Below are positions 1 to 40,635 of a stretch of DNA of 64,000 bases, in pieces. Position numbers and translations under genes: made by a program. This stretch comes from a virus, in IMG/VR virus record IMGVR_UViG_3300045988_159790; one strand, given 5' to 3'. Every line of letters begins with the position of its first letter. Positions within the stretch are counted from its first letter, which is position 1. The notes beneath the pieces are model-generated. The model worked only from the letters and a program-made list of their open reading frames with translations. It was not told the origin of the DNA and searched no databases.

Positions 1-45
1 CGAACATGCGCCGAAACAAATAATTACCAAAACAATTGTAACAAT
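1..45 (-). CDS. 5' end of leftward gene running off window; hydrophobic N-terminus (MIVTIVLVIICFGAC...)
   Basis: ATG at 45 (minus) with AAAGGGG RBS just upstream; frame open to window edge; minus-strand promoters at 121-149 and ~99-116 upstream. Confidence 0.3.
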   Translation of the reverse strand, partial: MVTIVLVIICFGACS

Positions 46-120
46 CATAAAACTCAACCCCTTTCTATATTTATATGATAACATATTTTTTTATAATTGT
101 CAACTCCTTTCTACATTGTT

Positions 121-149
121 ATTATAACATTTTGTAACTTATTTGTCAA
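121..149 (-). promoter_or_regulatory. minus-strand promoter TTGACA-17-TATAAT (proximal, cassette 1)
   Basis: rc hexamers attata 121-126 and tgtcaa 144-149. Confidence 0.6.
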
Positions 150-164
150 GAACTTTCTGAAAAA

Positions 165-192
165 CTTTGTTTTCAATCTCATTTGTTATCTG
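165..192 (-). promoter_or_regulatory. conserved leader motif CAGATAACAAATGAGATTGAAAACAAAG (minus sense), copy 1
   Basis: Near-identical 27-nt block present once in each cassette between the distal and proximal minus promoters. Confidence 0.5.
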
Positions 193-217
193 CTTTTCTC
201 TGTTCCTTACATTGAAT

Positions 218-246
218 AGTATAATACTTTGAGGCAGATATTGCAA
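218..246 (-). promoter_or_regulatory. minus-strand promoter TTGCAA-17-TATACT (distal, cassette 1)
   Basis: Read from rc. Confidence 0.5.
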
Positions 247-255
247 TAGACAATA

Positions 256-295
256 TGCACAAAGTTATGGGAAAATATTTGTGCAGTTTTATGTG
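256..295. promoter_or_regulatory. operator-like inverted repeat TGCACAAAG-N-TTTGTGCA
   Basis: 8-9 bp arms with ~15-bp spacer containing TTATGGGAAAAT; located 10-50 bp upstream of plus promoter. Confidence 0.4.
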
Positions 296-305
296 CGGAT
301 TTCGC

Positions 306-334
306 TTGACAAAATATCAAAAGTATGGTATAAT
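306..334 (+). promoter_or_regulatory. consensus sigma70-type promoter TTGACA-17-TATAAT (cassette copy 1, convergent to flanking genes)
   Basis: Exact hexamers and 17-bp spacer read from sequence. Confidence 0.7.
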
Positions 335-342
335 GGTAAATA

Positions 343-369
343 CCGGCGAAGCCGGACGCCTTCCAGGCG
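343..369 (+). ncRNA. promoter-proximal twin hairpins A (CCGGC-GAA-GCCGG) and B (CGCCT-TCC-AGGCG), copy 1
   Basis: Begins ~9 nt after -10; stems co-vary between copies. Confidence 0.35.
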
Positions 370-394
370 ATGATTTTCTGACGAAAATTTTAGT

Positions 395-426
395 CATAAC
401 TAAAAAGGTAGGCATTTCTGCCTACC
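395..426 (-). terminator. rho-independent terminator of 439..888 (GGGTAGGCAGAAATGCCTACC + TTTTT on minus)
   Basis: Hairpin plus T-run on minus strand. Confidence 0.7.
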
Positions 427-438
427 CGCAACTGACTA

Positions 439-888
439 TTATATTAAATCTTTAAGTCTTTCAATAATGTCCTGTCTCGCGTCTATCGTGCAACCCTGCG
501 ACCAACCGCGTCTTACCTTTTCATTATCATCAACTAATATCTGAAATCCGCCTAAATGTCTAGTACAATTGGCTTTCGTTGTGCCATACTTGACAAGATG
601 TACTTCATCATAAGGGAAACCTATCTGCTCAAGCCATGCTCTCTTAGCACTGCGAACAGCCGCGTCATATTTTTTATTGCTTTCCTTGCTTAACCAACTT
701 ACAATAACAATCTTCCAACCATTAATCTTGAGTGTATTAATCAAATCGTTTAACATTGTAGGCTCATAAACTGGCTGTGCTATCTCATAAGGGCGAGTGC
801 TACAATTCTTTAAATCTTCAAGCCAACCCTCAACTCCATAGAAATCTGCTATTGTTCCGTCCATATCAAAAACTAAAATTTTATTCAT
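439..888 (-). CDS. HAD-superfamily phosphatase (5'-nucleotidase-like)
   Basis: N-terminal FDMDGTIADF (DxDGT motif I), VIVSW (motif II), LVDDN (motif IV); RBS AGAGGT; intrinsic terminator 395-426 just downstream. Confidence 0.75.
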   Translation of the reverse strand: MNKILVFDMDGTIADFYGVEGWLEDLKNCSTRPYEIAQPVYEPTMLNDLINTLKINGWKIVIVSWLSKESNKKYDAAVRSAKRAWLEQIGFPYDEVHLVKYGTTKANCTRHLGGFQILVDDNEKVRRGWSQGCTIDARQDIIERLKDLI

Positions 889-944
889 ATTATATACCTC
901 TTTTCTTTTTTAGATTGTCGGGGCTTTTCAGCCCCAACTTATTA

Positions 945-1916
945 TTAGCAATATCCCTCAAGCATTAACATTAAGCCCTCAATCTTACTTACATAAGAAT
1001 TATGCGTTGTCTGCTGGCTAAGATAGTTGTTAAATGCTTCAATAACTACTGGAATGGCTTTCGGTCTCTTGTTAATAGCATAATCGTAAGTTGTACCCAG
1101 TTCTCTGAAAGGAAAAGCCTTGAGTATTGGTTCAATCTTGCCTTTCTTTAATGCCTTTGTGAGAATATCAGCTTCTATCTCACTATCACTTAATGCGGTA
1201 TGGTCCTCAGTAAAATCGTATCTCTTATTAAGATACTGGAAGCTAGTTTCTGCTGAAGATTTAAAGAACTCTCCGCTGTTAGTGATTAAGCTATTGTCAA
1301 GACAGAAGTTTCTGTACTTATCAATATTTATTAATCTCTCACAAGCTACTGCCCATAAGTCCACGATAGGAAACTCAAAATCTCTTAACTTAAATACTGG
1401 TTTAAGATACTCTGGATTACTCTCTCTATCATCTTTATATCCCCTAACAATCTTCTCACAACTCATTCTCTGCTTATCTTCCCAGTACTGATAGCCTGGT
1501 GCGTAAAGGTGTGCGATGTACTGTTCTGTAAAAGGAATTGCTTTCTTGTAATCAAATGCGGCATTGTATGCACATGTGCAAGTACACATTTCCAAATCTT
1601 CAAGCAATTCTGCAACCATATCATTCCAGTTGCGAACACCTATCTTACCCTCTGCGAGAAGCTGTTCATAAATAGGGCGCTTATTGCGGTAATAGGCTGT
1701 ATTAAAGATAGCCGGTACAAAGAAAGTTTCCTGAATAAGATAATTAACTCTCTTTACTCTATTGCCCAATCTGTCTGTTATTACCCAGCCTATATCATAA
1801 ACAAGTGGCTTGGCAATAGCAATCTTCTGTTTCTGTTTCGGATTCTTTGCAATCTCATTTGCAAAAGGTAGTGTAGCAGTCTCCGTGTCCAATGTTAAAT
1901 AATACTTCTTTTTCAT
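945..1916 (-). CDS. DEDDh 3'-5' exonuclease (DnaQ-like)
   Basis: Exo I LTLDTETAT, Exo II YNAAFD, Exo III HTALSDSEIEAD motifs; RBS GAGGT; co-transcribed with 439..888 (no promoter in 889-944). Confidence 0.85.
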   Translation of the reverse strand: MKKKYYLTLDTETATLPFANEIAKNPKQKQKIAIAKPLVYDIGWVITDRLGNRVKRVNYLIQETFFVPAIFNTAYYRNKRPIYEQLLAEGKIGVRNWNDMVAELLEDLEMCTCTCAYNAAFDYKKAIPFTEQYIAHLYAPGYQYWEDKQRMSCEKIVRGYKDDRESNPEYLKPVFKLRDFEFPIVDLWAVACERLINIDKYRNFCLDNSLITNSGEFFKSSAETSFQYLNKRYDFTEDHTALSDSEIEADILTKALKKGKIEPILKAFPFRELGTTYDYAINKRPKAIPVVIEAFNNYLSQQTTHNSYVSKIEGLMLMLEGYC

Positions 1917-1955
1917 TTCTAAATGATACCTCTTTTCTTTGATTTCTATGTGTTT

Positions 1956-1985
1956 ATTATAACACCCTTTTTATTATTTTGTCAA
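1956..1985 (-). promoter_or_regulatory. minus-strand promoter TTGACA-18-TATAAT (proximal, cassette 2; drives exonuclease-HAD operon)
   Basis: Read from rc. Confidence 0.6.
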
Positions 1986-2001
1986 GTGGTTTTTTAAAAA
2001 A

Positions 2002-2028
2002 CTTGTTTTCAATCTCGGTTGTTATCTG
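2002..2028 (-). promoter_or_regulatory. conserved leader motif copy 2
   Basis: cttgttttcaatctcggttgttatctg. Confidence 0.5.
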
Positions 2029-2057
2029 TTTTTCTCTGTTCCCCTTGAACAATTATA

Positions 2058-2086
2058 ATTATAGACCTACTACAAGAGAATGTCAA
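2058..2086 (-). promoter_or_regulatory. minus-strand promoter TTGACA-17-TATAAT (distal, cassette 2)
   Basis: Read from rc. Confidence 0.6.
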
Positions 2087-2132
2087 GCATTTTTTAGGAA
2101 AAAATTGTTTTTATTTTAGTACATAAAATCGC

Positions 2133-2161
2133 TTGACAAATTACCGAAAGTATGCTACAAT
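2133..2161 (+). promoter_or_regulatory. promoter TTGACA-17-TACAAT (cassette copy 2)
   Basis: Read from sequence. Confidence 0.65.
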
Positions 2162-2169
2162 GCAAAATT

Positions 2170-2196
2170 CCGGCAAAGCCGGTCGCGCAGAGCGCG
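2170..2196 (+). ncRNA. twin hairpins A (CCGGC-AAA-GCCGG) and B (CGCGC-AGA-GCGCG), copy 2
   Basis: Same position relative to promoter; compensatory stem changes. Confidence 0.35.
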
Positions 2197-2205
2197 GTGA
2201 AAATG

Positions 2206-2232
2206 TAAAGAAAAAGTGCGGATTTCCGCACT
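2206..2232 (-). terminator. rho-independent terminator of 2231..2575
   Basis: AGTGCGGAAATCCGCACT + TTTTTC on minus. Confidence 0.7.
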
Positions 2233-2575
2233 AATTCTGATACAAATTTTTTACTTCTATTACATTTCCGCAACTATCACATTTATAATAATAATAGTTA
2301 GTACCTCCTACACCTCTTCCGCGACTGGAAGCACTAACAAATTCATAATGTCCATTTTCGCATTCTGTACAAATTCCATTATTCCATGTTTTTATATCGC
2401 TATCTGCCTCTTGTATAAGACCAAAAGAGAATAAACCCGCAATTATACTTGTAGTTATAATAAATACTAATATTTTTAACCATTTCTTTTTAGTATTCAT
2501 ATTACTAATTATTATTATACCGAAGAATGAACAAATAAGAAACATTAAACAAAACATAACGATATTTCTAAACAT
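2231..2575 (-). CDS. hypothetical membrane protein, two TM helices plus C-terminal CxxC...CxxC zinc ribbon
   Basis: 114 aa ORF, RBS AAAGGGG, hydrophobic segments, CTEC...CDSC; terminator hairpin at 2206-2232. Confidence 0.5.
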   Translation of the reverse strand: MFRNIVMFCLMFLICSFFGIIIISNMNTKKKWLKILVFIITTSIIAGLFSFGLIQEADSDIKTWNNGICTECENGHYEFVSASSRGRGVGGTNYYYYKCDSCGNVIEVKNLYQN

Positions 2576-2613
2576 ATTTTACCCCTTTCTTGGGGCTGTA
2601 TAGCCCCAATCCT

Positions 2614-3084
2614 TTATAATGTTTTACACTCTGCGACGAAATACTTCGCATGATATTTTTCTACAATAGCCTTTACAACAGTGCTTTGCTTTTGTGTCTC
2701 ACAATAGACATTGAATAACATATACTTCTCAATATCTATGTAGCTATATGGAATCCTTAAAGTGTCTAAAGTTTCCATTAACTCTTTAGCATAATGTGGC
2801 TTCACTGTCATTTCCACTTTCCATAGTTTATCTCTTGTACTCTTTTCTTCAATCAGCTTTACAATGTAAACTCCGATAAGATTACACATAGCTATTATGA
2901 AAGCCTTTAAGAGAAGCGGAAGGTCGCACATCATGTATATTACTACAATAGTATACAAACCATAGGCTAATGCGTTGATTGCGGCGGCAGCTCCTTTTCC
3001 ACACTTGACAGTTACTAAAGATTTTGCTGTCTGAATAATAACATTTACAATGTTAAGAATAATAAATAAAACTAATAAATTCAT
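2614..3084 (-). CDS. hypothetical membrane protein (N-terminal TM helices, soluble C-terminal domain)
   Basis: 156 aa ORF with GAGGT RBS; hydrophobic N-terminal half. Confidence 0.5.
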   Translation of the reverse strand: MNLLVLFIILNIVNVIIQTAKSLVTVKCGKGAAAAINALAYGLYTIVVIYMMCDLPLLLKAFIIAMCNLIGVYIVKLIEEKSTRDKLWKVEMTVKPHYAKELMETLDTLRIPYSYIDIEKYMLFNVYCETQKQSTVVKAIVEKYHAKYFVAECKTL

Positions 3085-3101
3085 AATTAATACCTCTTTT
3101 C

Positions 3102-3323
3102 TTAATATTCTTTTACTTCTCTTACTAAATCAACTGGTTCAGGTGGTACATCTGCTTCTGTAAGGTCTAACCAACAATGTCGCTCAAGCCATCTCAAAAG
3201 AACTAACTGTTCTCCTGTTATGTGTAAATATGTTGGCAGATTATCTTCATCATCATAATTGCCCTCAAGGTCTAATTTCTTAATACTTACATCATATTCA
3301 TCTTTCATAATTGAATACCTCAT
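3102..3323 (-). CDS. hypothetical small acidic protein (probable true start at internal ATG 3308, MKDEYD...)
   Basis: ORF; GAGGT RBS sits 8 nt upstream of the internal ATG. Confidence 0.45.
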   Translation of the reverse strand: MRYSIMKDEYDVSIKKLDLEGNYDDEDNLPTYLHITGEQLVLLRWLERHCWLDLTEADVPPEPVDLVREVKEY

Positions 3324-3350
3324 TTCTATTCTATGTTTTTGTCAAGGATA

Positions 3351-3377
3351 CTTGTTTTCAATCTTATTTGTTATCTG
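3351..3377 (-). promoter_or_regulatory. conserved leader motif copy 3
   Basis: cttgttttcaatcttatttgttatctg. Confidence 0.5.
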
Positions 3378-3395
3378 TTCCCTTGAACAATTATA

Positions 3396-3423
3396 ATTAT
3401 AACAGATTATAAGCAAATGTCAA
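3396..3423 (-). promoter_or_regulatory. minus-strand promoter TTGACA-16-TATAAT (distal, cassette 3)
   Basis: Read from rc. Confidence 0.55.
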
Positions 3424-3467
3424 GCAGTTTTGGGAAAATAAAAAAATTTTTTATTTTGATTTTTCTC

Positions 3468-3496
3468 TTGACAAAAATGCCAAAATGTGATATAAT
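3468..3496 (+). promoter_or_regulatory. promoter TTGACA-17-TATAAT (cassette copy 3)
   Basis: Read from sequence. Confidence 0.7.
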
Positions 3497-3505
3497 ATCA
3501 AAATA

Positions 3506-3541
3506 CCGGCGAAGCCGGACGCCCACAGGGCGGTCTTTTTT
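3506..3541 (+). ncRNA. twin hairpins A and B (CGCCC-ACA-GGGCG) followed by T-run GTCTTTTTT; a ~40-nt promoter-to-terminator unit, copy 3
   Basis: Hairpin B plus T7 forms an intrinsic terminator on plus strand. Confidence 0.4.
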
Positions 3542-3545
3542 GAGC

Positions 3546-3582
3546 ATAAAAAGCTGATGACTATTAGTTTAGTCATCAGCTT
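3546..3582 (-). terminator. rho-independent terminator of 3587..3952
   Basis: AAGCTGATGACTAAACTAATAGTCATCAGCTT + TTTT on minus. Confidence 0.7.
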
Positions 3583-3586
3583 ACAG

Positions 3587-3952
3587 CTACTTTTTCTTTC
3601 TATGCTTTATCAGCGACAGTGAGTATTCATTCTCGCCGATGTTAAAGGTCAACTCTTTCTGCGGATTGGCTATCTGAACATTACTAATCTTGCCATTAAG
3701 TACCATTCCTCCAAGTAGAGTTTTTAAACACCCGATAAAATCAACCTTTTCATCATCGAGTTTTACTTCTCGTGGCTTCCGCGGTTTCTTTTCAGCTTCC
3801 GCACCCTTAACATAGTTTTTTATTCCCTTAGCTTTGATTTCCATTTCCGCCATTTCCATAGCTTCTTCTTTTGTGACTGGTTCTCCGTCTGCTTCACATT
3901 CCTTGAAAATCTTTAAAGCTAACTTCTCTAAGGCTTCTTTTTTACTATCCAT
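3587..3952 (-). CDS. hypothetical protein
   Basis: 121 aa ORF, RBS AGAGGT, rho-independent terminator 3546-3582 immediately downstream. Confidence 0.55.
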   Translation of the reverse strand: MDSKKEALEKLALKIFKECEADGEPVTKEEAMEMAEMEIKAKGIKNYVKGAEAEKKPRKPREVKLDDEKVDFIGCLKTLLGGMVLNGKISNVQIANPQKELTFNIGENEYSLSLIKHRKKK

Positions 3953-3974
3953 GCCCTATACCTCTTTCTTTTAA

Positions 3975-3999
3975 ATTGGGCGGTGTATTTCAACCGCCC
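3975..3999 (-). terminator. GC-rich hairpin after 4009..4386 (weak T-run)
   Basis: GGGCGGTTGAAATACACCGCCC. Confidence 0.35.
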
Positions 4000-4008
4000 G
4001 TCCGCAGA

Positions 4009-4386
4009 TTAGACAAGTGAGAAGATTGCCTTGTCCTTTTCCTCTTCTCTCTTTGCTGTGCCATTGGCAACCATAATCTTGAGAAGTGCAACTACTTTCT
4101 GATTAGAAAGCGCCTGAACCGCTTCATCAGCAGGGAAGTCTTTCATAGCCTTGAGCATAATCTGAGTAGAAGTACCCTTGAAACCGTCAAGGACAACCTT
4201 GAGCTTCTCAACCAGTGCTTCATTAGCCTTAGCTTTCTTATCAGAACCAGCCTTAGCCTTAGCTTTCTTCTTCTCAAGGAGTTCCTTTTCGTGCATAAGA
4301 TAAGTCTTATACATCTCATTGTCCTGTACGAACTCTTCTCCAAGCATAGCCTCGATAACCTGTAACTTTGTAATCTTCTTTTCCAT
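4009..4386 (-). CDS. hypothetical protein (K/E-rich, helical)
   Basis: 125 aa ORF, RBS GAGGT; hairpin 3978-3999 downstream. Confidence 0.5.
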   Translation of the reverse strand: MEKKITKLQVIEAMLGEEFVQDNEMYKTYLMHEKELLEKKKAKAKAGSDKKAKANEALVEKLKVVLDGFKGTSTQIMLKAMKDFPADEAVQALSNQKVVALLKIMVANGTAKREEEKDKAIFSLV

Positions 4387-4498
4387 AATGCAATACCTCG
4401 CTTTTATATAATATTTGAAGCTGATTTTTATTTTTTAATGTGGTCGATTGATGGCTCCCTTTCCTTTCCACATATATATGATAGCACATTTTATTGCG

Positions 4499-4789
4499 CT
4501 AGTCAAGCATAAATAATGTCATTCCGGCTATTTCCTTTTCTACCACTTCTAAAGTATCTAAATGAATAGTGGCTCTGACTATCTTCCAACAGCCAGTTTC
4601 AAACTTGTTGTGTTCATGGCGGCGTGGTAGTCTCTCTGCGGCATGGACTGCACTCTGACAATCTTCAAATACACCATCTATAACATAAGCAACTTGCGTT
4701 CCCATGCAATCTAAGTATCTCATTACTTTTAAGACATACTTAGTCTCTGTTTTTCTTGGTACATGCTTAGTCTCTGTTCCCATAACCAT
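4499..4789 (-). CDS. hypothetical protein
   Basis: 96 aa ORF directly downstream of minus-strand TTGACA-17-TATAAT promoter 4810-4838; RBS GGAAG. Confidence 0.5.
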   Translation of the reverse strand: MVMGTETKHVPRKTETKYVLKVMRYLDCMGTQVAYVIDGVFEDCQSAVHAAERLPRRHEHNKFETGCWKIVRATIHLDTLEVVEKEIAGMTLFMLD

Positions 4790-4809
4790 TACTTCCTTTC
4801 TATACCCTT

Positions 4810-4838
4810 ATTATATCACTTAGGTATCTATTTGTCAA
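4810..4838 (-). promoter_or_regulatory. minus-strand promoter TTGACA-17-TATAAT (proximal, cassette 4)
   Basis: Read from rc. Confidence 0.6.
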
Positions 4839-4860
4839 GCACTTCTTTTTTTTTGTTCGG

Positions 4861-4888
4861 GTTGTTTAGCAATCTCATTTGTTATCTC
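4861..4888 (-). promoter_or_regulatory. conserved leader motif copy 4 (more diverged)
   Basis: gttgtttagcaatctcatttgttatctc. Confidence 0.4.
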
Positions 4889-4901
4889 CCTTACAAGTAT
4901 C

Positions 4902-4929
4902 ATTATAGCAGATTGCCCCAAAATTGCAA
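4902..4929 (-). promoter_or_regulatory. minus-strand promoter TTGCAA-16-TATAAT (distal, cassette 4)
   Basis: Read from rc. Confidence 0.5.
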
Positions 4930-4939
4930 TAGTCAAAAC

Positions 4940-4969
4940 TGCACAAGATTTTGGGATAATGTTTGTGCA
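4940..4969. promoter_or_regulatory. operator-like inverted repeat TGCACAAG-N-TTTGTGCA
   Basis: Same architecture in cassette 4. Confidence 0.4.
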
Positions 4970-4988
4970 ATATGTCAACTTTTTTCCC

Positions 4989-5017
4989 TTGACAAAAATC
5001 CTAAAAGGTGGTATAAT
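4989..5017 (+). promoter_or_regulatory. promoter TTGACA-17-TATAAT (cassette copy 4)
   Basis: Read from sequence. Confidence 0.7.
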
Positions 5018-5026
5018 AGGCAAATT

Positions 5027-5050
5027 CCGGCGGGGCCGGACGTGCTCCGC
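5027..5050 (+). ncRNA. hairpin A (CCGGC-GGG-GCCGG) and degenerate hairpin B, copy 4
   Basis: Same spacing from -10. Confidence 0.3.
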
Positions 5051-5059
5051 CCGGTGCGA

Positions 5060-5200
5060 TTATTCTAACTTAAATTAGTTTGAACTAACAAGTGTTTTAT
5101 AAGTCTAACTTAAGTTAGCTTAATCTAACTACAGTTAGTTTGAATTAACAAGGATTAGCTTAATCTAACTAGAGTTAGTTTGAATTAACAACTGTTAAAA
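5060..5200. repeat. tandem ~40-bp iterons (2 near-identical plus 2 degenerate) each carrying palindrome CTAACT-N2-3-AGTTAG followed by TTTGAATTAACAA
   Basis: agcttaatctaactacagttagtttgaattaacaagg at 5117 and 5157; degenerate copies at 5060 and 5098. Confidence 0.7.
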
Positions 5201-5299
5201 ATTGCTAACTTTACTTTTATAAAACGAACTTCAATTCGTCTTCTCTAACTTTAATTTTATACAGCTAATTACAGATATTTGTAGCTAATTAAAATTAGA

Positions 5300-5335
5300 G
5301 AACGCAAATCGAATTTTGGAGGGTTGCCGCTACTT
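5300..5335 (-). terminator. hairpin GGGTTGCC-N7-GGCAACCC overlapping stop of 5330..5614 (weak T-run)
   Basis: 8-bp stem. Confidence 0.35.
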
Positions 5336-5614
5336 GGCAACCCAAACCTTTAATATTATGTCGTCATATTTAGACGACTGGTCATTAATGTCAAATAACA
5401 TCTTGACATTTTGACCCTCCGCGATATCACAGCCATCATATTCCCAGATATCGCCTGCCCTATCAGCAATCCGCACAAATCCATTATCATTGCTGATTAC
5501 CTTACCCTCTCTTGTACAGTGACCCTCAAGGTATATCGCGCCTAAGAATAATATTCCTAAAACTAAACCCAGGGCTATTCTTTTAACTATTGCTTTACTA
5601 TTGTTTTTTCTCAT
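5330..5614 (-). CDS. hypothetical secreted/membrane-anchored protein
   Basis: 94 aa ORF, N-terminal basic stretch plus hydrophobic helix (signal/anchor-like), RBS GAGGT. Confidence 0.5.
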   Translation of the reverse strand: MRKNNSKAIVKRIALGLVLGILFLGAIYLEGHCTREGKVISNDNGFVRIADRAGDIWEYDGCDIAEGQNVKMLFDINDQSSKYDDIILKVWVAK

Positions 5615-5675
5615 TTTAAATACCTCATTTCATTTTTATTTTTATATGTGGGCTTGGCTTCCCAAGCCCTAATCA

Positions 5676-5984
5676 TTAACAATATATCAAACTCATGTCT
5701 GCCCACTTGAGAATAGATATCTGTGCGCATTGTCTACCAAGTGCCAAAGCGTCTCTTTTTGTAGACACTCTGTGGCTCTTGTCTACAAAATAAACGCCAT
5801 TCTCAAGCCAAAGTCCGCAATTACCACCGTATGCTCTAACGGCTTTAATTGCTTCCTCGGGAGTTGTAACCATTACTCCCTCGGTGGCTACTTGATAACC
5901 ACTCTTGTATGTGATTATCTTACCATTCTTGAGTGTTAAACCGCCACACTCCTCAATCTTTCTTATTGTCCTAATGTTTATCAT
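5676..5984 (-). CDS. hypothetical protein
   Basis: 102 aa ORF with RBS GTGAGGT. Confidence 0.5.
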   Translation of the reverse strand: MINIRTIRKIEECGGLTLKNGKIITYKSGYQVATEGVMVTTPEEAIKAVRAYGGNCGLWLENGVYFVDKSHRVSTKRDALALGRQCAQISILKWADMSLIYC

Positions 5985-6026
5985 ACTTATAATACCTCAC
6001 TTTCTTTTCTCTTGGATAGTCCCGGC

Positions 6027-6356
6027 TTAGTAGCCGAGACTTATTAACTTGTCTATGTAAGAGTTCAGAACTGCTACAAACTGCTTGTTTGTCATCTTTC
6101 TAAACCTCTCAAGTGTAAAGTCGATAGGCGGAAGTTCTACACCCTCAACCTTTATGATGTACACCTGCGGACACGCTTTAATTGCATTGACTGCATGGAA
6201 GATGTTCACATCTTCGTATATATAAGTTGTGTCCTCATAGTTTGCAAATCTCATTGAGAACTTCTCTTTTGTATACATATTTAATTTCTTCATAGTAACC
6301 TCTTTTCTGTCTCTCTCTTGAAAGACTATCAATTTTATTTTACGGTTTTCGTTCAC
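6027..6356 (-). CDS. hypothetical protein
   Basis: 109 aa ORF with RBS AGAGGT. Confidence 0.5.
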   Translation of the reverse strand: MNENRKIKLIVFQERDRKEVTMKKLNMYTKEKFSMRFANYEDTTYIYEDVNIFHAVNAIKACPQVYIIKVEGVELPPIDFTLERFRKMTNKQFVAVLNSYIDKLISLGY

Positions 6357-6583
6357 CGCACCATTATAATATCATACCCCGTTTTCAATGTCAACACTTT
6401 TTTCAAAAATTTTTAAAAATTTTTTTATGCCCTATTTTCAAGGCTTTTCACGCACCCAAACACATGCACCAGACGATGATGTGACTACTTTTTTAGTCAG
6501 CAATAGTGACGATGTGTTTACTTTTGTAGTCAAATAGTCATCAATTATGGGATATGATTAGTCTTGTAGTCACACTCAATGTC

Positions 6584-6652
6584 GATTTGAAAAGTTTAAA
6601 TAACTAGTCAAATAGGCAAAATGCGACACGCTTTATGGGAGGAAGCGTGCCG
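6584..6652 (+). repeat. conserved ~70-bp element with hairpin whose loop is UAUGGGAGG (copy A)
   Basis: gatttgaaaagtttaaataactagtcaaataggcaaaatgcgacacgctttatgggaggaagcgtgccg; stem cacgctt/aagcgtg. Confidence 0.5.
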
Positions 6653-6660
6653 TTCAAAAT

Positions 6661-6780
6661 AACTAACCAAAGTTAGTCAAGCCTAACAATAGTTAGACTA
6701 AACTAATTAGATTTCGGGAAGACTAACTAGAGTTAGTTTGAATTAACAAGCATTAAGCTTGACTAACTCAAGTTAGTCTT
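6661..6780. repeat. second cluster of four CTAAC(T)-N-(A)GTTAG palindromes including one full iteron copy (gactaactagagttagtttgaattaacaag)
   Basis: actaac-caaa-gttagt, ctaac-aata-gttag, gactaact-ag-agttag, gactaact-ca-agttagtc. Confidence 0.65.
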
Positions 6781-6790
6781 TCCTAAACTA

Positions 6791-6823
6791 GATGAGTGCG
6801 GATTAGCGGTTTCCGCACTCATC
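6791..6823. repeat. perfect inverted repeat with 11-12 bp arms (GATGAGTGCGG ... CCGCACTCATC)
   Basis: Read from sequence; no adjacent T-run on either strand. Confidence 0.6.
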
Positions 6824-6979
6824 TAATAGACTAGACATGAAGCCGATGATGAACTCCATAAGACTAAGAAGTTCGTCATCAGATATGACTATGTGCGTAA
6901 GCACAAAGTCAACTTTCTGATTGACTTCTGTGACAGTGGAGCATTGCTCCACCATCACTATAGCTTCTAAAAAACTCAT
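6803..6979 (-). CDS. small hypothetical protein (58 aa, MSFLEAIVMVEQCSTVTEV...), not in ORF track
   Basis: Strong RBS GGGGAGGTGG; ATG overlaps the TGA of upstream gene 6976..7461 in ATGA arrangement (translational coupling); stop codon lies in loop of perfect 12-bp-arm palindrome 6791-6823. Confidence 0.45.
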   Translation of the reverse strand: MSFLEAIVMVEQCSTVTEVNQKVDFVLTHIVISDDELLSLMEFIIGFMSSLLDECGNR

Positions 6980-7461
6980 TCTACCACCTCCCCAGTTTTT
7001 TCATTTACTAAGCTACATCTAAGACCTAGTATTTTGCAAGCTTTAGCTGTATTATAGAATACTGATAATGCTGTGCCATAACTTTCAATCCCTGTAAAGA
7101 TTGGAGTGTTGCCATTATAAACTCCGTAGGTTACTTCCTGGAGTTCAAACTCCGCGATTGCGGAGTTTACTTGATTCTGCATTTCCTTAAGTAATGCTCC
7201 ACCGAAAAGCTCCTGAAGCTGATTGCCTTGAGTGAGACAGTCAAGTTCCATCTCTAACTTTGCCCAACACTCTGCTGAATCCTCATAAATAAACCCCTTG
7301 AGGATTATCTTGCAATCTACAGCATTAACTACACTGTGGATTGTATTGATTATCATAAGAGCATTATCTGCTACTGTATCAACACAGAGCCAGTTGCCCT
7401 CTTTAACTTCTTTACCTATTATTGACCTCATTGTTGCAATCAGCTTGTTTCCTTTTATCAT
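6976..7461 (-). CDS. hypothetical protein (ORF track start 7491 is TTG; ATG at 7461 with GGAAAGAGGT RBS preferred)
   Basis: ORF, RBS-supported internal ATG (MIKGNKL...). Confidence 0.5.
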   Translation of the reverse strand: MIKGNKLIATMRSIIGKEVKEGNWLCVDTVADNALMIINTIHSVVNAVDCKIILKGFIYEDSAECWAKLEMELDCLTQGNQLQELFGGALLKEMQNQVNSAIAEFELQEVTYGVYNGNTPIFTGIESYGTALSVFYNTAKACKILGLRCSLVNEKTGEVVE

Positions 7462-7573
7462 AATATACCTCTTTCCGCCCTTGCTTCTCAAGGGCTATCT
7501 AATTTATTTTGCCGCCATTGCCTTGCGACACCATTATAGTACACCCACCGCGCACTCATTGCAATATGCAAAA

Positions 7574-7603
7574 TGCACAAAGTTTGACAGATGTTTTTGT
7601 GCA
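7574..7603. promoter_or_regulatory. operator-like inverted repeat TGCACAAAG-N-TTTGTGCA (third copy, outside a full cassette)
   Basis: Preceded by same ATTGCAATA context as copies 1 and 4. Confidence 0.4.
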
Positions 7604-7741
7604 ATTTGTACAAAAGAGAATGCACCAAGATGGAAGTACCGAACATTTGTTCACCGCTTTAGTCAGCTCCGAGAATAGTTTAGTTTTTTAGACGCATGAG
7701 TTGTGGGAATTTTTATTTGACTACTTGATTAGACTTTTAGA

Positions 7742-7810
7742 ATTTGAAATGTTTAAATGACTAGAAATATAGTAAAATGCGGAGCGCTTTATGGGAGGAA
7801 GCGCGCCGAT
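7742..7810 (+). repeat. conserved ~70-bp element copy B with compensatory stem change (gcgctt/aagcgc)
   Basis: aatttgaaatgtttaaatgactagaaatatagtaaaatgcggagcgctttatgggaggaagcgcgccg. Confidence 0.5.
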
Positions 7811-7987
7811 GATTTGAAAATGTACGGGACTACAGTCTCAGTGTATGCTGATTATTTTTTGATAAAACTACAGACCATACATAAAAGGTGGTCATCAGTT
7901 TAAAATAAAAAAATTTTCTCTTTTTACCCGGGGATATATTATGGGAAAATGAAAAATTAATTCGATGAAATCATATTTAGCTGGTAC

Positions 7988-8050
7988 ATTCACACACCCC
8001 AAATTTTTTGAAATTTAAAAAACGATTCACACACCAAAAATTTTTTCGTT
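7988..8050. repeat. direct repeat ATTCACACACC(C/A)AAAATTTTTT x2 (37-bp period)
   Basis: Read from sequence. Confidence 0.5.
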
Positions 8051-8065
8051 TTTTAAAATACGAGA

Positions 8066-8371
8066 TTAATTCCGAACAACTCTTCCATGTTTCCCTGTTT
8101 GCTTATATGCCATAAACAGATTATTTAATTTAGTATTATTTCCATCCCCTAAGTTAATTAATAGGAAATCACAATTTTTTATAATATCTGAAGTTTCCGC
8201 ATTTTTTATATAGCGGGTCGGCGCGCCAACCGAATCAGCCCATTTTGCGGCAATGCTATCTTTATTTGTTACTAGCATATAAAATAAATAGCATTGACTT
8301 TCCGCAATTAACTTCTGCATTTCCGCATCAATATCTTCAATTTTATTAAAACCAATCGCCGCGACTATCAT
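8066..8371 (-). CDS. hypothetical protein, first gene of leftward arm at the divergent promoter region
   Basis: 101 aa ORF, RBS AAAGGAGTG, minus-strand TTGAAA-17-TATAAT promoter 8394-8422. Confidence 0.5.
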   Translation of the reverse strand: MIVAAIGFNKIEDIDAEMQKLIAESQCYLFYMLVTNKDSIAAKWADSVGAPTRYIKNAETSDIIKNCDFLLINLGDGNNTKLNNLFMAYKQTGKHGRVVRN

Positions 8372-8393
8372 TTTTATTCACTCCTTTATAATA

Positions 8394-8422
8394 ATTATAT
8401 CAAAAATTTTTTTTCTTTTCAA
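8394..8422 (-). promoter_or_regulatory. minus-strand promoter TTGAAA-17-TATAAT for 8066..8371
   Basis: Read from rc; divergent from plus promoter 8440-8468. Confidence 0.55.
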
Positions 8423-8439
8423 ATTATCTACTTTTGTCC

Positions 8440-8468
8440 TTGACTTGTGAAAATTTTTTTGGTATAAT
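8440..8468 (+). promoter_or_regulatory. promoter TTGACT-17-TATAAT for rightward late/structural operon
   Basis: Read from sequence. Confidence 0.65.
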
Positions 8469-8499
8469 TATTATAAGAATAAGAAATAAGGAGAGACTA

Positions 8500-9582
8500 A
8501 TGGAGCAACAAAAAGAAAATAGTGATTATATTAAAATGGATTTTAATATTGAATCACCTGCGGAAAGAGTAGAGAAAGTAAAAGAAATTATTGCCAACAC
8601 TCCTCCTGAAAGATTAACTCATTCTTACTTAGAGAAATTAAGTAATTACATAATTTTTGCTATGGATAAAGAAGAAAGAAAACAAAACAAAATCTTAACA
8701 GATAACCATATGCAAACAGTAAATGTAAGAGAGACATCTTTTGAAGGACTTGTAGGTAGATTAGAAAATGGTGAAGATGGTATATATAATATGATTGCGA
8801 ATGACAAAAATATTATATTTAAACCAAAATTTGAAATTACAGACGCGGATATCGCGGAAATGCCTGAGCTAAGAGAACTCCGCAAGGGCATAGAAGAATT
8901 AAAAGAACAGTTAAAAACAGCAAGAGGCAAAAAAGCATATCAAATAAAAAAACATATCATAGAAGCAAGTCAAGACCAGTATGTAATAAAAAATTCTTAT
9001 AAAAAACCTATCTATTGTATAAATCCCCTTAAAAGTGTAGCAAAATTAGATTTAGATGAACATGTAACTGTTGATGAAAATGATGAAATTCATACTGATG
9101 GTATTTTAAGTTTACTCGTGCCGCGACATATTTGCGCGGTATTATGTAATTATGAAAAATTAAGAATTCAAACTTGGGATAAGTTAAATAGTGATGTTAA
9201 ATGGTTTCTTGTAGACTTAGATAATCTTATAGATGAAACTTTAAAATATGATTATCCAATATATTATGATATCACTCTCTTGAAAATTCGCGGCTACCAG
9301 AATACAGAAATTCAAGAGTATTTAGAAATAAAATATAATGTAAATCACTCTGTTGAATATATTTCTTCTCTTTGGAGAAATAAAATACCAAAATTACTTG
9401 CGGAAAAGGCACAAGAGAAATGGTTAGTTTGGTATTATACTAACAAAGCAGAAGGAAAATGGAAAAAATGTTCAAGATGTGGGCAAATTAAGTTAGCTAG
9501 TAATAGATTCTTTTCAAAAAATAATACAAGCAAAGACCATTTTTACAGTATATGTAAATGTTGCAGAAATAAAAGAAAATAA
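8500..9582 (+). CDS. hypothetical protein with C-terminal Cys4 zinc ribbon; first gene of rightward late operon
   Basis: ATG 8500 with AAGGAGA RBS (ORF track start 8434 lies inside promoter); CSRCGQ...CKCCRNK. Confidence 0.6.
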   Translation: MEQQKENSDYIKMDFNIESPAERVEKVKEIIANTPPERLTHSYLEKLSNYIIFAMDKEERKQNKILTDNHMQTVNVRETSFEGLVGRLENGEDGIYNMIANDKNIIFKPKFEITDADIAEMPELRELRKGIEELKEQLKTARGKKAYQIKKHIIEASQDQYVIKNSYKKPIYCINPLKSVAKLDLDEHVTVDENDEIHTDGILSLLVPRHICAVLCNYEKLRIQTWDKLNSDVKWFLVDLDNLIDETLKYDYPIYYDITLLKIRGYQNTEIQEYLEIKYNVNHSVEYISSLWRNKIPKLLAEKAQEKWLVWYYTNKAEGKWKKCSRCGQIKLASNRFFSKNNTSKDHFYSICKCCRNKRK

Positions 9583-40182: not shown

Positions 40183-40635
40183 ATGTTAGCTTTATTGAAA
40201 TCTTATTCTGTTGGAGAAATTTTTATCTTCATAGTTGTGCTTGCTTTGGCGGTAAAGGAAGCTATCTCATTATATCAATATTTTGCAAAAGGAATTTCTG
40301 ATAACTTTGATAAGAAGTATAAAAAGCAGGAAACTCTTAATAGTTTAAGTGAGAAAATAAACCAATTAACAATAATGGTTAAACAACTTCAAGAAAATAA
40401 TGAACAGCAAAATAAGAAAATCGAGAACTTAATTGATTCTGATGTACAAGATATAAGAAGTTGGATTGTGCAACAACATCATGCGTGTCAACAAGGAAAA
40501 CGCTTAGACTCGTTTGAAATGGATTGTATTGAAAAAAGATATGCGTGTTATGATAAAGAAGGCGGCAATTCATACATCCATAATCTTGTAGAGGGGATTA
40601 GAAAAATGAATAATAGTCAAGAACAAGAGAAATAA
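40183..40635 (+). CDS. hypothetical protein with N-terminal TM helix and coiled-coil
   Basis: 150 aa ORF with AGGAGG RBS. Confidence 0.5.
   Translation: MLALLKSYSVGEIFIFIVVLALAVKEAISLYQYFAKGISDNFDKKYKKQETLNSLSEKINQLTIMVKQLQENNEQQNKKIENLIDSDVQDIRSWIVQQHHACQQGKRLDSFEMDCIEKRYACYDKEGGNSYIHNLVEGIRKMNNSQEQEK

Follow-up and report, generated by a model that had tools for sequence, protein, structure and literature searches.

The 64,000-nucleotide stretch of DNA considered here (hereafter the window) belongs to the IMG/VR virus record IMGVR_UViG_3300045988_159790 and comes from a large siphovirus, with genes for a terminase, a portal protein, and a tape-measure protein of 3110 amino acids (aa), and also for an anaerobic ribonucleotide reductase, a dUTPase, and a RuvC-like protein. 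From position 1 to approximately 8370 every gene lies on the minus strand, and in this early region a palindrome, TGCACAA-N16-TTGTGCA, is repeated upstream of early promoters. A preliminary description had taken this palindrome for a classic repressor operator; we argue that it is probably a protein-binding element of another kind, placed upstream of the promoters that it serves. The divide between the early and late regions (8371–8470) carries back-to-back promoters at 8394–8468, and the plus-strand late block is opened by the open reading frame (ORF) 8434–9582, whose product is sigma-like (phrog_5767, E = 1e-49) with a zinc-ribbon-like C-terminal tail. A megablast search of positions 1–8400 against cultured phages gave no match, an Rfam search of the whole window gave no family, and the terminase has 54 relatives in IMG/VR, most of them at 62–74% identity.

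The exact motif is found at three places in the window, 256–285 (copy 1), 4940–4969 (copy 2), and 7574–7603 (copy 3), whereas shuffled windows contained no exact match and a mean of 0.15 matches with one mismatch. The three copies that had been reported before are therefore real; the coordinates given for copies 2 and 3 were right, and copy 1 ends at 285 rather than at 295. The arms are 8–9 bp long, as had been described, and the spacer, previously given as N13–15, is a uniform 16 nt between 7-nt arms in all three copies (or N14 if the arms are taken as 8 nt). With their longer arms, copies 1 and 3 read TGCACAAAG-N13-TTTGTGCA and copy 2 reads TGCACAAG-N14-TTTGTGCA; the spacer contains TTATGGGAAAAT in copy 1 and TTTTGGGATAAT in copy 2, and is flanked by A-tracts and T-tracts. 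Lone arms are not enriched elsewhere in the window (18 seen versus 17 expected). The exact motif is absent from the late-gene region (8.4–57 kb), and the only further near-match in the window, with one mismatch, lies within a late gene at 40443.

Each copy stands beside a minus-strand promoter of the sigma-70 type, and the TTGCAA in the upstream context that the copies share, "ATTGCAATAG", is its −35 box, in agreement with the preliminary description. Beside copy 1 this promoter is weak (218–246, minus strand; TTGCAA at 241–246, a 17-nt spacer, and TATACT at 218–223; 9/12), beside copy 2 it reads TTGCAA-16-TATAAT (4902–4929, minus strand; 10/12), and beside copy 3 it is the weakest of the set (7536–7564, minus strand; TTGCAA at 7559–7564, a 17-nt spacer, and TACTAT at 7536–7541; 8/12). 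The gap between the palindrome and the −35 box is 9 nt, 10 nt, and 9 nt, respectively. On the other side, 20 nt from copy 1 and 19 nt from copy 2, there are plus-strand promoters at 306–334 (a TG-extended perfect consensus, TTGACA-17-TATAAT; 12/12) and at 4989–5017 (a perfect consensus, 12/12, followed by hairpins at 5027–5058 and then by an array with a 20-bp period); copy 3 stands alone, without a plus-strand partner promoter. The palindrome thus lies between a distal minus-strand promoter and a plus-strand promoter at copies 1 and 2, as had been noted. Of the earlier wording "divergent or convergent", the first term describes the flanking promoters, and the second applies only to the plus-strand promoter in relation to the upstream minus-strand gene. 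If the start sites are placed 7 nt past the −10 box, the palindrome is centred at approximately −59.5 of all three minus-strand promoters and at −70.5 (copy 1) and −69.5 (copy 2) of the plus-strand promoters. It covers approximately positions −45 to −74 relative to the weak promoter and, relative to the strong one, approximately −55 to −85.

Copies 1 and 2 belong to the first and the fourth of four homologous intergenic cassettes (approximately 150–420, 1990–2240, 3340–3600, and 4840–5100), in each of which the next gene has minus-strand promoters in tandem, while the plus strand carries a TG-extended promoter of perfect consensus with GC hairpins directly after it. In cassettes 2 and 3 the arms are missing, and the distal promoters match the consensus at 12/12 instead. 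The minus-strand promoter at copy 2 leads to an operon of ORF 4499–4789 (ORF96), ORF 4009–4386 (a predicted winged-helix protein), and ORF 3587–3952 (ORF121), and that at copy 3 leads to ORF 6976–7461 and ORF 6803–6979. The plus-strand promoter at 306–334 points at the 3' end of the gene at 439–888.

Several other features of these cassettes should be mentioned. The backward plus-strand promoters and their hairpins form units at 306–369, 2133–2200, 3468–3532, and 4989–5058, in which the promoter is followed 2–8 nt later by a GC-rich hairpin and then by an A-run and the terminator of the upstream gene. Because the promoter runs into a hairpin and a terminator, only a transcript of approximately 40–90 nt is possible. 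In cassette 1 the two GC hairpins, CCGGCGAAGCCGG and CGCCTTCCAGGCG (343–369), lie just past the plus-strand start site and read as a second terminator on the minus strand; in general, the cassette hairpin with its T-run reads as a second terminator on the sense strand, and its stems vary among phages while the pairing is kept. The same layout of promoter and hairpin occurs in L067, L069, L070, L072, L086, L249, L288, and L301. In all four cassettes, a conserved leader of approximately 28 nt (ACTTGTTTTCAATCTCATTTGTTATCTG, in plus-strand reading) separates the distal minus-strand promoter from the proximal one (165–193, 2005–2033, 3353–3380, and 4866–4890). The spacer motif TTTYGGGA(A/T)AAT is found at 265–276, 2095–2110, 3432–3446, and 4950–4961, and hence also in the arm-free cassettes 2 and 3; a similar TTCCTAAAAT is repeated upstream of promoters in the AT-rich relatives L320–L324. 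Finally, the left half of 4884–5030 matches one cassette of the relative L318 and the right half matches another (7951–8098 and 9339–9486), and the 1.4 kb of small ORFs between these two is missing from the window; this alignment suggests that cassette 4 arose by recombination between the two, with the exchange inside the conserved palindrome/promoter region.

Well over a hundred uncultivated Clostridia phages from the gut and the rumen carry the motif, at a set distance upstream of early promoters. A search pattern that included the TTGCAATA context returned 32 viral stretches, and the bare 16-base pattern gave at least 119 viral matches, on contigs of 5 to 195 kb. The closest relatives, L318 and L319, have four copies each within approximately 9 kb at the left end of a 147–150 kb contig, and their arms are kept save for single uncompensated changes; the conservation of the arms in related phages, on which the preliminary description had staked its proposal, is thus borne out. 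The motif also occurs in the published gut phage phAss-1, with two N16 copies and two copies of a wider form, N26, in 18 kb at its right end. This phage has a genome of 135,976 bp, genetic code 15, a tape-measure protein of 3149 aa, and a predicted host in the Eubacteriales (PMC10607447); promoters and palindromes go unmentioned in that paper (PMC10607447).

Among the matches listed, the motif and its helical phasing recur at 160 unique sites on IMG/VR phage contigs. The phasing was measured on 57 sites and then on 121 further sites found without the context requirement, with random positions in the same loci as the control. The −35 hexamer starts 9–10 nt or 19–20 nt from the palindrome, with a smaller peak at 30 nt, and the control is flat, with no offset peaks. 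At offsets 9–10, TTG[AC][AC]A is found in 69 of 344 flanks, compared with approximately 1.7 expected. The common layout in the relatives is a good promoter of the sigma-70 type at 9–10 nt, often accompanied at the opposite end by a perfect one at 19–20 nt. The near promoters score 10.0/12 on average and most commonly have TTGCAA as their −35 box; the far promoters average 11.6/12, are perfect in 25 of 36 cases, and are TG-extended in 86%.

Whether such an element is read as DNA by a protein or acts through its own structure can be judged from the way in which it varies. We took a census of inverted repeats in 1.05 Mb of phage DNA that had been picked by protein instead of by motif. At spacing N14 there are 37 perfect 8-mer inverted repeats, and 27 of these read TGCACAAA, whereas the other spacings have 4–18 repeats of mixed sequence; symmetric arms of any other sequence occur only at the background frequency seen at other spacings. 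Mismatches in the arms are single and uncompensated, with a 6:1 bias to the promoter-distal arm. The A at −4 and the T at +4 are near-invariant (43 of 47 sites), and there is no complementarity beyond the arms, either inside or outside. The runner-up spacing is N26 (with N25–27), which is one helical turn more than N16; here each arm has a −35 box 9 nt away, the two promoters being back to back, and the N16 and N26 forms alike keep approximately 58 bp between their −35 boxes. Half-sites also occur as tight TTGTGCA-N3-TGCACAA pairs beside N16 sites. The conserved letters of the arms, the uncompensated mismatches, and the N26 spacing favour a protein site over a hairpin, and we therefore consider it probable that the palindrome is an upstream promoter element bound by a protein. 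To this extent, the symmetric, promoter-tied behaviour of a protein site that the preliminary description ascribed to the palindrome is supported, as a prediction. In the N26 sites, TTTYGGGA(A/T)AAT is placed 4–5 nt inside the arm beside the weak promoter; an alternative view of the spacer, with TGGGAWAAT as an extended −10 box, was rejected, since the N26 relatives conserve TTTYGGGA, which is not a −10 box.

The operon downstream of copy 2 supplies a candidate for the binding protein. Searches of the small early ORFs against Pfam, PHROGs, NCBIfam, and PDB sequences found no helix-turn-helix (HTH) family, and ORF 4009–4386 (minus strand, 125 aa) in particular has no match in Pfam, NCBIfam, or PDB sequences (MarR, PadR, ArsR, and similar families); a single relative has a weak MarR_2 match. 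Its AlphaFold2 model (mean pLDDT 90.8) has a long helix at residues 24–66 and a C-terminal winged helix, with a three-helix bundle and a beta-hairpin wing, and the top Foldseek matches in the PDB are all winged-helix regulators (YodB, AspA, F-93, the DNA-binding domain of Fur, and LmrR), although with weak E-values of 0.01–0.05. An HTH protein among the small early genes, as sought by the preliminary description, is thus present according to the predicted structure. The protein has 18 close homologues; a profile built from 18 diverse members retrieves at least 650 proteins, mainly from metagenomic assemblies and some on phage-sized contigs, two of which are labelled "predicted transcriptional regulator". 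The recognition helix of the family, (S/T)xQK(V/I/A)(S/T)ALL, is conserved. The partner protein, ORF 3587–3952, gave a model with a mean pLDDT of 80 and no meaningful structural neighbour.

The gene tends to occur near the motif, though not exclusively there. Every one of the seven phage loci retrieved by way of this protein has motif sites within 6 kb (1–9 each; one locus has only a one-mismatch copy). A site lies at most 700 nt upstream of 43% of the winged-helix family genes, compared with 20% of other small genes (p = 3e-4), and the gene is carried by 10 of 14 loci with at least three sites, compared with 15 of 106 one-site loci. In L318, the operon behind the equivalent of copy 1 has a second pair of winged-helix and ORF121-like genes. 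XRE and AbrB-like proteins near motif sites in other phages were also tried as candidates; they cluster there, but are heterogeneous and absent from the window, so both were set aside as a universal binder. In the present phage, the product of ORF 4009–4386 and its paralogues may be the binder, and we put this forward as a candidate assignment with somewhat less than even odds. In the AT-rich phages L320–L324, there are dense arrays of promoters at 11–12/12 of the consensus, each after a textbook A-tract UP element and with no palindrome.

We propose that the element consists of two half-sites, TTGTGCA(A), arranged head to head with 16 nt between them, for a sequence-specific DNA-binding protein that acts upstream of early promoters of the sigma-A type; we would give this reading a probability of roughly 55%. 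The palindrome would occupy a single helical face a short way upstream of host-type (sigma-A) promoters, with the promoter-proximal half-site 9–10 nt from the −35 box, so that the bound protein would be placed where the polymerase alpha subunit contacts DNA through its C-terminal domain. Its most likely action there would be to aid RNA polymerase at the weak minus-strand promoters (TTGCAA as −35 box; 8–10 of 12). Where a back-to-back consensus promoter lies one helical turn further away, the same bound protein might shift the balance between the two promoters, activating the weak one and holding back the strong one in a manner resembling that of the phi29 protein p4.

Two observations from the promoters point in this direction. 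With the inferred start sites, the centre of the site falls on one helical face upstream of the −35 box, as expected of a class I activator, and spaced inverted repeats between a weak and a strong opposed promoter, the layout of the p4 switch, are present at copies 1 and 2 and, with both flanking promoters, at 19 of the 160 related sites. From the sequence and spacing, then, an upstream regulator of the class I or phi29 p4-like kind seems to fit the site better than a classic operator. The weak TTGCAA promoters beside the palindrome in the window, together with the 12/12 promoters of the palindrome-free cassettes, favour activation of the sense promoter; we regard a net activation of the adjacent weak promoter as an even bet. 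A more specific scheme, which we offer as speculation and think rather improbable in all its parts, is that the unannotated family of small phage proteins with the long helix and winged helix autoregulates and times the early cassettes of large siphophages of Clostridia through TGCACAA-N16/26-TTGTGCA, boosting the weak sense promoter and restraining the perfect consensus antisense promoter, whose only product would be a short RNA hairpin; the outcome would be a switch of the p4 kind, assembled from unrelated components and employed again in each cassette.

The following observations count against the proposal or against parts of it. Among the relatives, 21 of 99 near promoters have TTGACA, and many are near-consensus (TTGACA-17-TATAAT), so that an activator would be needless there. 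One rigid dimer cannot span both the N16 and the N26 forms. As for the candidate binder, the co-localisation counts take in redundant loci of the same contigs and shared ancestry. Distant homologues (30–36% identity) occur in the AT-rich phages L320–L324, which have no motif, and most single-site viral loci have no winged-helix gene in the DNA fetched. Among loci selected by their terminase, the presence of the motif and that of the winged-helix gene are not associated. Co-variation of recognition helix and site, which was also considered, found no support: in L329 the arms are TGCATAA and TATACAA, yet the helix of the protein, SNQKISALL, is unchanged. Lastly, only one of 120 bacterial loci with the motif, among the matches listed, carries the phage winged-helix family; taken together with the enrichment of these loci in intergenic DNA of Clostridia, this suggests either a host factor or a second, unrelated use of the motif.

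The first of these two possibilities leads to the strongest alternative, in which the same upstream site is read by a conserved DNA-binding protein of the Clostridia, which the phages would use for driving or timing their early transcription, much as host Spo0A boxes are used by phage phi29. Phages with terminases of only 62–74% identity have the same half-site, and so do contigs ranging from 5 to 195 kb in length, among them temperate-looking ones in which the site separates a CI-like gene from a Cro-like gene. In 185,579 species genomes, a scan found at least 120 loci; among the matches listed, approximately 110 are from Clostridia (Oscillospiraceae, Ruminococcus, Acutalibacteraceae, and Lachnospiraceae), 73% of the sites are intergenic compared with 17% of random positions, and the neighbours are ordinary chromosomal genes. 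On the other hand, the bacterial sites show no fixed phasing to promoters, and their flanks differ (TACRAA at +4 and extra outward complementarity), so they may represent an element of another kind; inverted repeats of any sort are favoured by a palindromic query; and only some early promoters of the phage have the site (three in the window). A literature search with the half-site strings gave nothing relevant. To our knowledge, the half-site matches no motif of a Firmicutes regulator, which also argues against a host factor; none of the sites of DnaA, Spo0A, Rex, CRP/FNR, BirA, NrdR, SpoIIID, and the clostridial flexible cre combines this half-site with this orientation and spacing. On balance, we judge a host protein to be an unlikely reader, perhaps one chance in several. 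It should be mentioned that TGCACAAA-N14-TTTGTGCA is frequent and intergenic in Clostridia chromosomes (L087–L206), five times upstream of paralogous genes for 185-aa ECF-like sigma factors.

The preliminary description had proposed that a dimeric phage repressor binds the palindrome and shuts the flanking promoters. The inverted symmetry, the fixed spacing, and the position between back-to-back promoters suit such a dimer site. Some temperate-looking contigs also have 12-bp palindromes (TTTGTGCACAAA) made of the same half-site, which lie between a CI-like and a Cro-like gene and look like true operators. Moreover, very strong promoters can be repressed from an upstream site, the action of phi29 p4 at A2c being an example. 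Against this idea, neither the three copies in the window nor the bulk of the 160 viral sites overlap the −35 box, the −10 box, or the start site, and no gene of the XRE or Cro type with an HTH was detected within the 64 kb covered, out of a genome of roughly 150 kb, by tblastn with 23 phage XRE proteins or with Pfam HTH_3. The offsets are instead phased at 9–10, 19–20, and 30 nt, and helical phasing to the −35 box is needed for contact with the polymerase from upstream, not for steric occlusion. The classic operator of the preliminary description therefore does not hold up well, and we consider it improbable.

A structure without any dedicated protein is more improbable still; it might be a hairpin in RNA, cruciform or curved DNA, or a conserved boundary that promotes recombination between cassettes. 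The RNA folds of 40-nt stretches have energies of −7.4 to −10.6 kcal/mol with z-scores of −1.8 to −3.5, there are A/T-tracts around the spacer, the apparent crossover in cassette 4 lies in or near the palindrome, and L329 has two symmetric variants, TATACAAA and TGCATAAA. As RNA, however, the element would be an A/U-rich stem of 8–9 bp with a loop of 12–16 nt and no U-run, unlike a terminator or a structured RNA, and because it is upstream of both flanking promoters it lies outside the flanking transcripts. Covariation was not found, variant symmetric arms being at background and mismatches uncompensated, and the step of one turn from N16 to N26 and the strict phasing to the −35 box would be pointless for a hairpin or for recombination. 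The remaining idea, that the arms are the −35 and −10 boxes of a promoter for an alternative sigma factor such as the sigma-like product of ORF 8434–9582, has in its favour the encoded protein and an arm spacing (16–17 nt) equal to the usual distance between such boxes, but it is very improbable, given that it would require a −35 box exactly reverse-complementary to the −10 box, down to the symmetric pair of A at −4 and T at +4, that the motif is missing from the late region where a phage sigma factor would be expected to act, and that N26 and N3 arrangements exist.

Other repeated elements occur near the palindromes. Two arrays with a 20-bp repeat period, at 5045–5250 (directly 3' of the plus-strand promoter of cassette 4) and at 6663–6808, are built on CTAACTnnAGTTAG-like palindromes, and the first is a candidate for a replication origin or a partition site. 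A box resembling that of LexA (Cheo box, Gram-positive), CGAACATTTGTTC, lies at 7640–7652, 37 nt from copy 3, and is invariant in L318 and L319; in other phages, GAAC-N4-GTTC boxes are found inside the spacer of palindrome-linked promoters (L057, approximately 3625; L080, approximately 4530). An element of approximately 60 nt with a hairpin at its end is repeated in ORF-free DNA at 6594–6652 and 7751–7808. One copy has the hairpin CACGCTT-TATGGGAGG-AAGCGTG and the second has GCGCGCTT-TATGGGAGG-AAGCGCGC, with the same loop and compensatory differences in the stem.

The gut and rumen phages of 100–195 kb considered here are uncultivated, and the annotation of their early genes is almost entirely "hypothetical". 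The motif, whose half-site, spacing, and register to the promoter are defined, marks a co-regulated subset of early promoters and can aid the annotation of early regions and promoter strands in metagenomic phage contigs. It also offers a cheap binding test, with one 125-aa protein and a 40-bp probe. If the binder is a host protein instead, the motif would reveal a global regulator of the Clostridia that is used by phages.

Several well-studied systems can be compared with the element. At the A2b/A2c/A3 switch of phi29, the p4 sites are short inverted repeats approximately 15 bp apart, located between opposed sigma-A promoters of unequal strength, and bound p4, by contacting the polymerase, turns up the weak promoter and turns down the strong one. 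The palindrome shares with these sites the spaced inverted repeats upstream of, or between, weak and strong opposed sigma-A promoters. It differs from them in its half-site (TGCACAA/TTGTGCA here, CTTTTT/AAAATG in phi29), in its position, since the p4 sites are centred near −82 and overlap the −35 box of A2b, and in its candidate binder, a winged-helix protein without the p4 fold; Pfam and PHROG searches found no p4 homologue among the early ORFs. Class I activator sites, such as those of CRP at −61.5 and −71.5, are similar in being symmetric and on one face of the helix, within reach of the alpha C-terminal domain, the centres here being at approximately −59.5, −69.5/−70.5, and approximately −80. 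The half-site centres, however, are 23 bp apart rather than approximately 11 bp, TGTGA-N6-TCACA is unrelated, and many of the target promoters here are already strong.

The late promoters controlled by P2 Ogr and P4 delta have a TGT-N12-ACA dyad at approximately −55 that is recognised by a small phage activator; like the palindrome, it is a phage-wide dyad at a fixed position upstream of promoters of the sigma-70 type, but its half-site orientation and spacing are different, it marks late rather than early-region promoters, and no zinc-finger Ogr-like protein was seen here. The AimR operator of the arbitrium phages, with 6-bp inverted repeats 25 bp apart, also places wide-set inverted half-sites upstream of a regulated promoter, in that case for one extended AimR dimer; AimR is a large TPR protein, of a type not detected here, and an arbitrium phage has one such operator rather than several per early region. 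The host-takeover module of SPO1 resembles the present early region in being a genome end packed with short operons, each with its own strong early promoters and terminators, in both orientations; SPO1 uses the HU-like TF1 on DNA containing hmU, and we know of no conserved palindrome comparable to this one in that phage. In summary, the element would work like the upstream regulator sites of phi29 p4, P2 Ogr, and class I CRP, and by its sequence and its candidate protein it stands outside those families.

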